From Escherichia coli (GTDB taxonomy: Bacteria; Pseudomonadota; Gammaproteobacteria; Enterobacterales; Enterobacteriaceae), in assembly GCF_003334315.1 (NCBI RefSeq), contig NZ_QOWR01000030.1: a stretch of 51,845 bases of DNA. One strand, given 5' to 3'. Positions 10,477 through 37,920 of this stretch are shown one piece after another. The notes under the pieces were generated by a model. It was given only the letters and a program-made list of their open reading frames with translations, was not told the DNA's origin and did not search any database. Numbering within the stretch: the stretch's first letter is position 1; every line of letters begins with the position of its first letter. The position numbers were made by a program, and so were the translations under genes.

Positions 10477-10650
10477 TTAAAACAGTGAAAACAACAGCGC
10501 CACCGGGAAACTCATCGGCCATGTTGCCCCCACCAGAAAGGCGCTTAAGAAACGGATGCGTTTCTTATCGTGAGAAAGAAACCAGGTGATAAGAAATGCG
10601 ATTGCTGCCATAACCGCATAAAAAACAAGCATGTGTTGATAGAGAGACAT
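10477..10650 (-). CDS. ortT: orphan membrane toxin OrtT, 57 aa
   Basis: ORF 10477..10725 trimmed to ATG at 10650 (MSLYQHMLVFYAVMAAIAFLITWFLSHDKK...). Confidence 0.8.
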   Translation of the reverse strand: MSLYQHMLVFYAVMAAIAFLITWFLSHDKKRIRFLSAFLVGATWPMSFPVALLFSLF

Positions 10651-10844
10651 GTACGGGCGTCCAGCCAGATGAATAAAACGCGCGCAAATATGCGTCATTT
10701 TTTGACGTGCATCAAGTTTTTTCACCAGTTTGAGAAAAAATCATCAAACAGCAACTTGCCCTTATCCATCTTCAGAATGAGTATTATTGCGGATTTTCTT
10801 AACCCGTACTATACACATAGGGGCAATGATAAAAGGTGGCAAAA

Positions 10845-10940
10845 ATGAATGTTTCCAGTAGAACTGTAGTACTGATAAATTTCTTTGCTGCTGTTGGTTT
10901 GTTTACTCTTATCTCTATGAGATTTGGCTGGTTTATTTGA
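10845..10940 (+). CDS. yncL: small membrane protein YncL, 31 aa
   Basis: Not in the ORF track (too short); ATG at 10845 preceded by aaaaggtgg; translates to MNVSSRTVVLINFFAAVGLFTLISMRFGWFI. Confidence 0.7.
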   Translation: MNVSSRTVVLINFFAAVGLFTLISMRFGWFI

Positions 10941-10962
10941 TGTAGTGATTTTGCACGCAGCA

Positions 10963-10997
10963 CGTACTGTCAGAGAAATCAGTGCTCTGACAGTACG
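10963..10997. terminator. 13-bp perfect inverted repeat hairpin downstream of yncL, at the edge of the AT-rich island
   Basis: cgtactgtcagag-aaatcagtg-ctctgacagtacg; U-tract weak. Confidence 0.4.
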
Positions 10998-11341
10998 CAA
11001 GATCTTCTCATACTCTCCAGGTTTACAACATCATCCTTAATATTTACTTCTTTTTGCTGGCATCTACATTGAAATGAGTAGAAAACATCCCCCTACTGTC
11101 GTCTATACAAACAGTTTACTGATTCAAACGGAATCTTGTTTTCACATTTTTCTATTATGAATACTTTATACGCGCGGGAGTCTATAAATGCTTTATACTT
11201 TCAAGGAATAACGTAAATATAAAAAGATGGCGTAAAGTATATGCATGGCAGGATGTTTGCAACCTCCTTGATGACGCTGCCCCATTGAAATTGCAAACCC
11301 CGCCCTGGTTATCTTGCCCATTTATCATGCAAAACAGATAA

Positions 11342-12151
11342 TTATAGGCCTCTGAATACCTCAGAAAGATTGAATTTTTTATAGTCCCTCTCTTGAATAT
11401 TTCCATTTGATATCAATCGATTCATCTCTTCAACAAAATAATTTATATCATCACACTTGTTATTATCCGGAAGATCTGAGTAGTTATAATTCCACCATTT
11501 TATTCTCAACAGTTCATCAATAACATTTGAATCAAACCTAAATCTGATTATTTTTGCAGGAACTCCTGCAACTATGGCATATGGGGGCACATCTTTGGTA
11601 ACAACGGAATTGGCAGCAATAACAGCACCATCACCTATTGCGATGCCACCTTTCAATACAACATCATTTCCTATCCAGACATCATTTCCTATAATCGGAT
11701 TTTCAGGTTTGATAATGAATGGTTTCAATGTCCAGCTACGTTCAAATTCACTCATAGCAAACTTATCAAATTCACCGTTATAAGTCATCATGTGAGTAGT
11801 AAAACGATTCAAAGGATGATTTTCACCCATTATTTTTACATTTGATGCAATACTACAAAATCGACCTATACGTATATTCCCTGAAAAATGGCAGGTCGGA
11901 AATGAAAAAGCGCCGACACTGGAGAAATTTTTCACAGGCATTGTTGAATATTCTTCAGCAATAACATTATCTTCAATTGTTATCTTGTCACCTTTTGAGA
12001 AAAGAAATAAATTCCTTTCTTTATACGACTTCTTCCCCTTATGATTTAAAAAGATTTTATTATCCATACAAAACTCAAAGTGTTTTTTCGTCCATCTGAA
12101 GGTAAGGGTTTTATTTTTATCTTCCGTGAATTTGTACAATTGAACTTTCAT
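11342..12151 (-). CDS. hexapeptide-repeat xenobiotic acetyltransferase (XAT class, Vat/CatB-like), 269 aa
   Basis: ATG-initiated ORF; C-terminal IGNDVWIGNDVVLKGGIAIGDGAVIAANSVVTKDVPPYAIVAGVPAKIIRFRFD...IKWWNYNY closely parallels the VatD/CatB hexapeptide core and KWWNW tail; ENHPLNRF lies at the catalytic-His loop position; gene and flanks are strongly AT-rich. Confidence 0.75.
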   Translation of the reverse strand: MKVQLYKFTEDKNKTLTFRWTKKHFEFCMDNKIFLNHKGKKSYKERNLFLFSKGDKITIEDNVIAEEYSTMPVKNFSSVGAFSFPTCHFSGNIRIGRFCSIASNVKIMGENHPLNRFTTHMMTYNGEFDKFAMSEFERSWTLKPFIIKPENPIIGNDVWIGNDVVLKGGIAIGDGAVIAANSVVTKDVPPYAIVAGVPAKIIRFRFDSNVIDELLRIKWWNYNYSDLPDNNKCDDINYFVEEMNRLISNGNIQERDYKKFNLSEVFRGL

Positions 12152-12360
12152 TGTTAATACTTCTACTTATAAATTATTAGTTTAATAACGATACTCTAAA
12201 GCCTTATGCTAATCAACTGTGACAGGATGAAAAATCGCCCTCAAACATTTAGCCTAATTTTTACGCTAGTTATTAATGTAATCATTCTAATACTTAACCG
12301 CCATTAAACTCAGAACCTAAAACGATAGTGGCCGTCCTATAACAGCCACTAACATCTAAC

Positions 12361-13785
12361 TTAATGTTTAACCATGACGTGGCGGACGACGGTGTAATCC
12401 TCCAGCCCATAAAGTGACATATCCTTGCCGTAACCAGAAAGTTTCTGTCCACCGTGCGGCATTTCACTTACCAGCATGAAATGGGTATTGACCCAAGTAC
12501 AACCATATTGCAGCCGTGCGCTGACGCGATGCGCCCTGCCCACATCTTTCGTCCATACCGAAGATGCAAGTCCGTACTGGCTGTCATTCGCCCAGTTCAC
12601 CACCTGTTCTTCGTTGTCGAAGAGCGTAACACTCACTACTGGACCAAATACCTCTTTTTGCACGATGGCATCGTCCTGTAATGCGCCAGCCAGCAGCGTC
12701 GGCGCATAGTAATAGCCATTACCCTTGCGCTTTTCACCGCCAGTGATCACTTTGATGTGCCCTGTCGCTTTCGCCTCTTCTACTGCCTTGCTGACGCGTT
12801 CGAGATGCGCCAGCGAGCTTAAAGGTCCAAGCTCCGTAGACTCGTCATCTGGCGCACCAGATTTTAACGTTGCCACCGCAGCACCCAGTTTTTCCACCAG
12901 CGTATCGTAAATGCCTTTTTGCGCGTAGATCCGACAAGCCGCAGTACAATCCTGTCCAGCATTGTAATAGCCAAATGTACGTACACCTTCGACCACTGCT
13001 TCAATATCCGCATCATCAAAAACAATCACTGGCGCTTTGCCACCAAGTTCCATATGAGTACGCTTAATGGACGACGCGGTATGGCTGATGATGTGCTCGC
13101 CGGTGGCGATAGAGCCCGTCAGCGACACCATCCGCACTTTGGGATGACCGGTCAGCGGATCACCCACCGTTTTGCCTCTGCCAAACAGTATGTTAATCAC
13201 GCCTGCCGGGAAGATATCTTTCGCCAGCTCTGCCAACTTCAACGCGGTCAGCGGGGTAATTTCTGATGGTTTAAGCACTACGCAGTTCCCTGCCGCCAGC
13301 GCCGGAGCAAGTTTCCACGCGGCCATCATCAGCGGATAATTCCACGGTGCGATAGAAGCCACGACCCCCAACGGATCGCGACGGATCATCGAAGTATGAC
13401 CTTCAAGATATTCACCTGCCGCCAGACCATTCAGACAGCGCGCCGCACCCGCGAAAAAGCGAAAAACATCGACAATCGCCGGGATTTCATCATTGAACGC
13501 ACTATGCAGCGGTTTGCCACAATTACGGGACTCCAGTTCGGCAAAAACCTGACCATTTTCTTCGATAACATCAGCCAGTTTCAGCAGACATTCCGCACGC
13601 ACTTTCGGCGTGGTTTGCCCCCATTCGGCAAATGCTGCATCTGCCGCGCGCACAGCAGCATCGACCTGCTCTGCGGATGCCTCGGCAATTTCCAGTAAAA
13701 CGTCCCCCGTTGCCGGATTATAGACAGGCTGTTTTTCCCCTTCGCCGCTAACCAGTTCTCCGTTAATCAGTAACTTATGTTGCAT
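12361..13785 (-). CDS. patD: gamma-aminobutyraldehyde dehydrogenase, 474 aa
   Basis: ORF track; aldehyde dehydrogenase family with catalytic Cys/Glu context; length matches PatD. Confidence 0.95.
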
Positions 13786-36893: not shown

Positions 36894-37182
36894 TACCGTT
36901 GTCTCTCGTCCAGGTTTACTCCTGATAGAAAGTCATCGGCACTTGACGGTAATTACTTACGACTAAAAGCCTCTTTGCGTCACATTTTTACAACAATTAT
37001 TGCAGAGAAGGTTAATGCCATTGGAATGAAGAGAGTAACGAATGATTAAACGGGCTAACCCGAATGACGAAAAATTCTGGAAAACAGCACGCAATTTCGT
37101 GAAGTGATTATTTTCGTCCCTAAGGAAACCTCATAGGATGCCTGCGGGTGCCTGAGACTTTCTGTTTTCAGGCTAACCGGGA

Positions 37183-37233
37183 ATCAGAAAGACGAAGGCC
37201 CCGACCGATATTTCTATCAACCGAGGCCAACGA

Positions 37234-37250
<17 letters not shown>
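37183..37250 (-). ncRNA. sokB: SokB antisense RNA of the hokB/mokB type I toxin-antitoxin locus (approximate)
   Basis: Minus-strand terminator hairpin (GGCCUCGG...UCGGGGCC then U-run) complementary to the mokB start region; extent inferred from hok/sok architecture. Confidence 0.4.
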
Positions 37251-37441
<191 letters not shown>

Positions 37442-37856: not shown

Positions 37857-37920
37857 CTTCCGATGTAGACCCGTATTCTTCGCCTGTACCACGGGTCGGT
37901 TTTAGTACAGGCGTTTTCTT
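37857..37920 (+). ncRNA. rydC: Hfq-dependent small RNA RydC
   Basis: cttccgatgtagacccgtattcttcgcctgtaccacgggtcggttttagtacaggcgttttctt matches my recollection of RydC, including the terminal hairpin and U-run; sits between ydcA and cybB. Confidence 0.7.

Follow-up and report, generated by a model that had tools for sequence, protein, structure and literature searches.

The orphan toxin gene ortT of Escherichia coli, its family and the conserved FNR box in its promoter region

We analyzed a 51,845-nucleotide stretch of an Escherichia coli genome (contig NZ_QOWR01000030.1 of assembly GCF_003334315.1; hereafter the window), which carries on its minus strand the gene ortT (ydcX) for a small membrane protein of the GhoT/OrtT toxin family. 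The gene, at positions 10477 to 10650 (read from 10650 to 10477), is very probably the already known, named and experimentally characterized ortT of E. coli, and as such a gene of the core genome. Comparison across Enterobacterales shows that ortT is under purifying selection and that its solitary state, with no antitoxin gene beside it, is the rule for the family. Its upstream region contains a conserved box for the transcription factor FNR, on which we base a tentative model of how a lytic peptide could be kept in check at the level of its own expression.

Identity of ortT and its relation to GhoT

The ATG-initiated open reading frame (ORF) on the minus strand comprises 57 codons plus a stop codon, with the translation MSLYQHMLVFYAVMAAIAFLITWFLSHDKKRIRFLSAFLVGATWPMSFPVALLFSLF*. 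Short ORFs are abundant near ortT (82 of at least 20 amino acids in 5 kb), but the ortT ORF is a real gene and not a chance one. Its product matches the Pfam family PF10753 (Toxin_GhoT_OrtT) with an E-value of 9.2e-28 and 96.7 bits, residues 4–57 aligning to positions 1–55 of the 55-position model, and RefSeq labels it ‘orphan toxin OrtT’ (WP_000061178.1). The gene and its flanks (10400–11014) are base-for-base the same as those of b1445 in E. coli K-12 MG1655, and the gene order patD-yncL-ortT-ydcY-ydcZ-mnaT-curA matches that of K-12, with the portion from patD to ydcZ also found in other RefSeq genomes. Since DNA, protein and synteny are identical, this is the same gene as the one for K-12 OrtT (YdcX, b1445), the ‘orphan toxin related to tetrahydrofolate’ of Islam, Benedik and Wood (2015; PMC4344625). 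In the strain studied here, the locus differs from that of K-12 only by a 1.3-kb acetyltransferase islet inserted at the boundary of yncL and patD; ortT with its promoter region, as well as yncL, remain intact.

A longer, GTG-initiated version of the ortT ORF (82 amino acids, start at 10725) was ruled out. The extension crosses the conserved promoter and FNR box described below, and the sequence upstream of that promoter block contains indels and is not conserved between genera, so that the 57-residue form is the real ortT. Searches of other resources gave no model matching OrtT or YdcY in NCBIfam, no defense-system match by PADLOC among OrtT, YncL, YdcY and the islet acetyltransferase, and no solved relative of OrtT in a sequence search of the PDB.

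The original prediction had named the product a GhoT-like membrane toxin of 57 amino acids, and the comparison that it proposed bears this out. Using ghoT and ghoS reference sequences taken from K-12, BLASTP aligned OrtT with GhoT without a gap at an E-value of 8e-27, with 36 of 57 residues identical and 45 of 57 positive, which reproduces the published identity of 63% (PMC4344625). GhoT, the toxin of the type V system GhoT/GhoS (yjdO/yjdK in E. coli), thus belongs to the same Pfam family and has the same length of 57 residues; the two proteins have in common the C-terminal motif LSAFLVGxTWPMSxPVALLFSLF, two predicted transmembrane helices and the same lytic, membrane-damaging phenotype (PMC4344625). 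In the hydropathy profile of OrtT, two hydrophobic blocks lie on either side of the charged loop H27-D-K-K-R-I-R33 (HDKKRIR), which holds nearly all charged residues of the protein, H6 being the sole exception. An AlphaFold model built on a 42-sequence alignment places helices at residues 3–26 and 30–56 with moderate confidence (mean predicted local distance difference test score, pLDDT, of 71). OrtT is thus predicted to form a hairpin in which a short basic loop connects two transmembrane helices, and the model agrees with the two transmembrane segments proposed previously (PMC4344625). Phe38, at which a mutation affecting toxicity has been described, is present in the OrtT of the window, while the family has F, V, L or A at this position, which is therefore hydrophobic without being invariant.

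The function of OrtT has been described in some detail by Islam et al. (PMC4344625). Production of OrtT slows or stops growth, and its overproduction led to 99.99% lysis, to ghost-like cells as seen with GhoT, to membrane damage visible by electron microscopy and to a 27-fold drop in ATP. The protein is the toxic agent, as an ATG-to-ACG mutant was harmless, and the F38R substitution lowered toxicity. OrtT was not detectable by Western blot, and the authors leaned on the start-codon mutant. The ortT deletion mutant showed more growth and metabolism under trimethoprim or sulfamethoxazole, and ortT transcription responded to triggers of the stringent response and to heat shock, rising 89-fold with serine hydroxamate and 2-fold upon heat shock, and also with mupirocin and trimethoprim (PMC4344625). 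In Pantoea MT58, where ydcX is plasmid-borne, the mutant has a fitness defect of -1.7 in contaminated groundwater (PMC11467524).

The solitary state of ortT and its conserved FNR box

The claim of the original prediction that no antitoxin gene lies next to ortT also held. A tblastn search with GhoS across the whole window found no homologue (best E-value 6.8), and the same-strand neighbor ydcY, whose product gave no alignment with GhoS, has been excluded by experiment (PMC4344625). Because the defining adjacent GhoS gene is absent, ortT is not a type V toxin–antitoxin system. It is probably not a type I system either, as no sign of one was seen: an Rfam scan of positions 9500–12500 at E <= 1 returned no RNA family, a promoter scan antisense to the ortT coding sequence returned no sigma-70-like promoter, and in the published neutralization tests OrtT toxicity was relieved by neither YdcY, GhoS, the flanking intergenic RNAs nor a genomic library of 3-fold coverage (PMC4344625).

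A scan of the whole window at Rfam gathering thresholds yielded only sok (37146–37297, 109.7 bits) and RydC (37857–37920, 92.5 bits), both on the plus strand and about 26 kb from ortT. A small-membrane-toxin locus of the classical type I kind, presumably hokB/sokB, is thus also part of the window. HokB resembles OrtT in being a small hydrophobic inner-membrane peptide that depolarizes or lyses the cell when made. Hok genes, however, are overlapped by an antisense RNA that Rfam recognizes at the score given above, whereas the ortT region has no Rfam match, its flanks are short (194 and 85 bp) and the RNAs from those flanks do not neutralize the toxin (PMC4344625).

To place ortT among its relatives, GTDB species-representative genomes were scanned using an alignment of OrtT and GhoT as the query, and neighboring genes at the resulting 80 loci were typed by tblastn. 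We classed 77 loci as OrtT-type; their proteins are 68–96% identical to that of the window and in every case resemble OrtT more than GhoT. These loci represent more than 12 genera, among them Escherichia, Citrobacter, Kosakonia, Cedecea, Buttiauxella, Pantoea, Mixta, Siccibacter, Franconibacter, Mangrovibacter and Intestinirhabdus. No GhoS gene lies within 3 kb of ortT at any of the 77. In contrast, GhoT-type genes were seen only in Escherichia, and all three such loci have ghoS immediately upstream, together with lysU and yjdJ. The two types differ in E. coli as well, where ghoT is in one operon with ghoS, 27 bp behind it, while ortT has no ghoS-like neighbor. GhoS does not neutralize OrtT, and ghoT and ortT deletion mutants respond to different antibiotics (PMC4344625). 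Clustering of ORFs within 1.5 kb of ortT revealed no partner gene conserved across genera. The gene ydcY adjoins ortT in Escherichia only. We found yncL at 24 loci (Escherichia, Citrobacter, Intestinirhabdus and one unclassified isolate), in every case divergent from ortT and at a distance of 190–195 bp, and patD is located upstream of ortT in about 39 loci of many genera; in Cedecea, which lacks yncL, ortT follows patD by 126–133 bp. All 78 OrtT-type genes compared are intact at exactly 57 codons and encode 67 distinct proteins, and the median ratio of nonsynonymous to synonymous substitution rates (dN/dS) relative to the window gene is 0.11 for the 39 pairs with estimable dS, with nonsynonymous and synonymous differences (pN and pS) of 0.16 and 0.74. 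Since these genes lack an antitoxin gene as a rule throughout more than 12 genera, the name ‘orphan’ probably does not mean that a partner was lost.

At 17 loci of Pantoea and Mixta, ortT is followed on its own strand, after some 108 bp, by a conserved ORF of about 56–69 codons with a lipoprotein-like signal (…LLSAC…). The ortT locus is carried by a large plasmid in at least two Pantoea/Mixta cases (pPANA1 and a P. agglomerans plasmid), which matches the plasmid-borne, fitness-relevant ydcX reported for Pantoea MT58 (PMC11467524).

Alignment of the region upstream of ortT from 25 genera or species revealed one strongly conserved block, ACTTGAT-N4-rTCAn-(A-rich)-GCATATT. The corresponding segment of the window includes an FNR box (TTGATGCACGTCAA, 10702–10715, minus strand), identified by pattern search, which matches TTGAT-N4-ATCAA at 9 of 10 positions and whose first T lies 65 nt before the start codon of ortT. 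The box overlaps a -35-like hexamer, TTGATG (10710–10715, minus strand), which together with the -10-like hexamer CATATT (10687–10692, minus strand) would form a sigma-70 promoter, TTGATG-17 nt-CATATT. With 8 of 12 matches, this putative promoter falls under the threshold of the consensus promoter scanner; a CATNNT motif occurs at the same offset from the FNR box in about 69 of 78 loci, as well as in the cross-genus alignment. Judged from these hexamers, transcription would start near position 10680 and give a leader of about 30 nt. The ribosome-binding site of ortT is weak and consists of GGA only.

Conservation of the box extends through most of the family. It is found with at most two mismatches in 74 of 78 OrtT-type loci (13 perfect, 32 with one mismatch and 29 with two) and lies 61–67 nt from the ATG in 73 of the 78, compared to background rates per 150-nt window of 0.3% for perfect sites, 0.65% for one mismatch and 6.2% for two. 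The boxes comprise 45 distinct sequences, which are variable in the central N4 and conserved in the half-sites. Genera without yncL have the box too, and because it is kept at a fixed distance from ortT even there, we assign the FNR site, and the chromatin immunoprecipitation (ChIP) peak that coincides with it, to ortT. The ghoST locus differs in having no conserved FNR box; upstream of ghoS there are only sites with two mismatches, within the background rate.

Binding of FNR at this site is not new. The gene ydcX is an FNR target in the ChIP-chip study of K-12 by Grainger et al., with exactly this motif (PMC1802558, Table 2), and a ‘yncL/ydcX’ peak is present in every ChIP-seq and ChIP-chip data set of Myers et al., where it ranks among the taller peaks (PMC3688515, Tables S5–S7) and where the target gene is listed as ‘indistinguishable’. 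The main text of Myers et al. does not mention ydcX or ortT, and the paper on OrtT (PMC4344625) makes no mention of FNR, oxygen or nitric oxide (NO). In anaerobic CFT073 cells making NO from nitrate, ydcX rose 11.85-fold together with cyo and sdh genes, and the authors ascribed the NO response partly to inactivation of FNR (PMC5320621); as a sign of FNR control of ydcX, this rise under endogenous NO is only suggestive. Supplementary tables of Cappable-seq work contain no ortT start-site entry near the predicted coordinates.

Other interpretations of the promoter region were considered. Class II activation by FNR, with the box at -41.5, was rejected on geometry, given that no conserved -10-like hexamer lies 29–30 nt downstream of the box center; the conserved CATNNT is 16.5 nt downstream of it. 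A sigma-E promoter was also rejected, the elements AAACTT and TCAAA being just 8 nt apart and thus too close. A sigma-32-like reading, CTTGATG-N14-ACGCATAT, is possible and fits the promoters predicted previously (PMC4344625).

Neighboring genes and the acetyltransferase islet

The gene yncL (10845–10940, plus strand) encodes a 31-residue, single-helix stress-response membrane protein, identified by annotation and by the NCBIfam equivalog NF000537, with a score of 68.6 bits that exceeds the cut-off of 35. In the original prediction ortT was said to be followed by yncL. The two genes are indeed adjacent, 194 bp apart (10651–10844), yet yncL is on the plus strand and divergent from ortT, not downstream of it. 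Conserved blocks in an alignment of 24 Escherichia and Citrobacter intergenic regions point to a putative yncL promoter, TTGCGG (10787–10792)-17 nt-TATACA (10810–10815), followed by the Shine–Dalgarno sequence AAGGTGG (10833–10839), the whole spanning 10787–10839 on the plus strand. The length of the intergenic region is held at 190–195 bp in Escherichia, Citrobacter and Intestinirhabdus, with about 60 bp in the center poorly conserved, and this constancy may mean that the promoters of the two genes have to be kept at a certain distance.

Production of YncL causes membrane depolarization and nucleoid condensation, and yncL is induced by heat shock (PMC12542507). YncL and YohP (Hemm et al. 2008/2010; PMC12542507) are like OrtT short, hydrophobic and stress-induced, and when produced they bring about sublethal depolarization and lower metabolism. 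They have a single helix (27–31 amino acids) where OrtT has two, and no sequence similarity to it. The distribution of YncL is also far narrower than that of OrtT, being confined to Escherichia, Citrobacter and close relatives.

On the other side of ortT, 85 bp downstream of it, lies ydcY (10158–10391, minus strand), which encodes a DUF2526 protein of 77 amino acids (Pfam PF10735, E-value 1.2e-46). It has a strong Shine–Dalgarno sequence and, by promoter scan, a promoter-like site of its own, TTGACG-16-TATCAT (10461 to 10434). Beyond yncL, RNA folding identified a perfect 12-bp hairpin with a 9-nt loop (10964–10996, not assigned to a strand), with a folding energy of -28.1 kcal/mol and a z-score of -2.9; none of 200 shuffled sequences was as stable. 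The hairpin is identical in K-12, is not followed by a run of T on either strand, and lies between the convergent genes yncL and patD in genomes that lack the islet.

The AT-rich islet itself (11036–12370, not assigned to a strand) was delimited by alignment with K-12 as an insertion of about 1324 bp outside the ortT unit, at the junction of yncL and patD. Its two ends are marked by an imperfect 11-bp direct repeat, CTTAAT(A/G)TTTA, in the copies CTTAATATTTA (11036–11046) and CTTAATGTTTA (12360–12370). The latter copy overlaps the patD stop codon, and K-12 has a single copy, likewise on the patD stop. The left junction (11036–11047) and the ortT start codon are about 390 bp apart, where some 300 bp had been estimated. 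The islet has a GC content of 0.28–0.37 and the core ortT-yncL segment (about 10400 to 11000) one of 0.38–0.45; low GC that starts inside this core segment probably led to the boundary being misplaced by eye. After 600 bp of identity with K-12, the last 25 bp or so to the left of the junction (11015–11035) deviate from it at several positions, which suggests that the islet came by recombination with a short foreign flank.

Of 5426 complete E. coli genomes, 5416 contain the 1-kb block of ydcY, ortT and yncL, and 1150 contain the full-length islet. As the islet occurs in far fewer genomes, and as the ortT and yncL DNA of the islet-carrying strain is the same as in islet-free K-12, the two genes are outside the islet. 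The arrangement patD-(yncL)-ortT is common to Citrobacter, Kosakonia, Cedecea, Buttiauxella and Siccibacter and is therefore older than the islet. Hence ortT and yncL are old core neighbors of a recurrently variable junction, and neither islet cargo nor features of an islet edge; the suggestion that these small membrane-peptide genes would help to interpret the insertion does not survive the genome counts and the K-12 comparison.

The islet gene (11342–12151, minus strand) encodes a CatB-related O-acetyltransferase of 269 amino acids with hexapeptide repeats. Its scores fall far short of all curated NCBIfam cut-offs (Vat, 125 bits where 300 are required; CatB, 103 where 350 are). A plasmid origin was rejected, since no close plasmid homologue was found and the sole match, at 97%, is a 4.9-Mb E. 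coli replicon filed among plasmids. With scores under the cut-offs and no close homologue on plasmids, the gene should not be taken for one of the known genes for resistance to streptogramins or chloramphenicol. Some E. coli genomes have a copy of the islet with IS1 inside it.

The interval from patD to yncL or ortT, noted at ten loci for the former gap and five for the latter, is recurrently variable across genera, with a basal state of 92–103 bp. Unrelated inserts of 374, about 555, 713 and about 2325 bp separate patD and yncL in Citrobacter species, and the largest of them has genes for a 403-residue membrane protein and a 253-residue protein. Kosakonia, Buttiauxella, Cedecea and Siccibacter have a gap of 1.5–2.7 kb between patD and ortT with other genes inside.

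Interpretation of the orphan state

The boldest reading, possible though less likely than not, is that OrtT represents the ancestral, always solitary form of the GhoT/OrtT family across Enterobacterales, with the FNR operator serving as a transcriptional ‘antitoxin’ that would keep ortT silent in anoxia and release it by oxygen or NO for stringent and heat induction; GhoT/GhoS would then be a late offshoot, confined to Escherichia, that uses an RNase antitoxin instead. In the reading that we favor, OrtT is an inner-membrane peptide of two hydrophobic helices and a short basic loop that, when produced, damages the membrane, lowers ATP and slows or stops growth (PMC4344625). With no antitoxin at hand, control must presumably lie in expression, for which a weak ribosome-binding site, a non-consensus sigma-70 promoter and occlusion by FNR would be the means. 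The FNR box would cover the -35 hexamer and the upstream part of the spacer, its center being at about -28.5 from the predicted start. A box so centered would occlude the -35 region, from which we infer that active, anaerobic FNR represses ortT and that oxygen or NO lifts the repression.

Several observations weigh against this proposal. No FNR-dependent change in expression was recorded at yncL/ydcX in anaerobic glucose minimal medium (Myers et al., PMC3688515, Table S9), and in the list of Grainger et al. ydcX is among the targets that earlier transcriptome studies had not picked up (PMC1802558). The induction of ydcX by nitrate and NO could equally be due to NarL/NarP, ArcA or NsrR. The position of the box relative to +1 is derived from the conserved -10-like hexamer alone, and the physiological role of OrtT from overexpression and deletion phenotypes of a single laboratory. 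Finally, the family scan was built on two peptide patterns, both taken from the E. coli proteins, and may have missed divergent relatives linked to GhoS.

A rather doubtful competing explanation is that OrtT is no toxin in the toxin–antitoxin sense and belongs with stress-regulated small membrane proteins such as YncL and YohP, lethality being an effect of overexpression and the native role being a mild, regulated depolarization or some other membrane function. It would account for 77 loci in more than 12 genera that lack an antitoxin and are nevertheless under purifying selection, for conserved control by a transcription factor in place of a partner gene, and for a divergent neighbor, YncL, that is itself induced by heat shock and likewise depolarizes the membrane and condenses the nucleoid (PMC12542507); the fitness cost of losing ydcX in Pantoea also suggests a beneficial role (PMC11467524). 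Lysis of 99.99% with GhoT-like ghost cells upon production, however, and the lower toxicity caused by the single substitution F38R speak against it, and the better growth of the deletion mutant under trimethoprim is as expected of a growth brake (PMC4344625). This explanation overlaps with the FNR-controlled, solitary toxin that we propose, and the distinction between the two is partly semantic.

It is also conceivable, though very unlikely, that ortT has a hidden partner, the antitoxin being YncL, YdcY or a small RNA of a type I-like kind, either cis-antisense or flanking. The fixed spacing of yncL from ortT in all 24 loci that have it could be taken in this sense; moreover, the clones of Islam et al. 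covered intergenic regions with yncL itself outside them, their library had 3-fold coverage (PMC4344625), and antisense transcription within the ortT coding sequence was not covered by the published neutralization tests. On the other hand, Kosakonia, Cedecea, Buttiauxella, Pantoea and others have kept ortT but have no detectable yncL, and YncL depolarizes the membrane, which is the opposite of what an antitoxin would do (PMC12542507). YdcY, found beside ortT in Escherichia alone, failed as an antitoxin (PMC4344625), and the Rfam scan, the antisense promoter scan and the non-neutralizing flanking RNAs speak against an RNA partner. We give practically no credence to a functional tie of ortT and yncL to the islet, be it as cargo, as a stabilizing addiction module or as an attractor of insertions. 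Proximity (about 390 bp) and a common AT-richness favor such a tie, as do the differing insertions of 374 to about 2330 bp that several Citrobacter species hold at the patD/yncL junction, but the block is near-universal in E. coli where the islet is not, ortT and yncL are identical in islet-free K-12, the islet stops at its 11-bp repeat beyond the yncL hairpin, the linkage of patD and ortT predates it, and its acetyltransferase is absent from the insertions seen in the other species.

As the re-identification of a characterized gene whose bearing on the nearby insertion was not upheld, the finding in itself matters little. The rule that OrtT-type genes have no antitoxin may be of interest to work on toxin–antitoxin systems and on small membrane proteins. 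In addition, the assignment to ortT of a strong and functionally unexplained FNR ChIP peak offers a testable idea of how a lytic peptide could be kept safe without an antitoxin.

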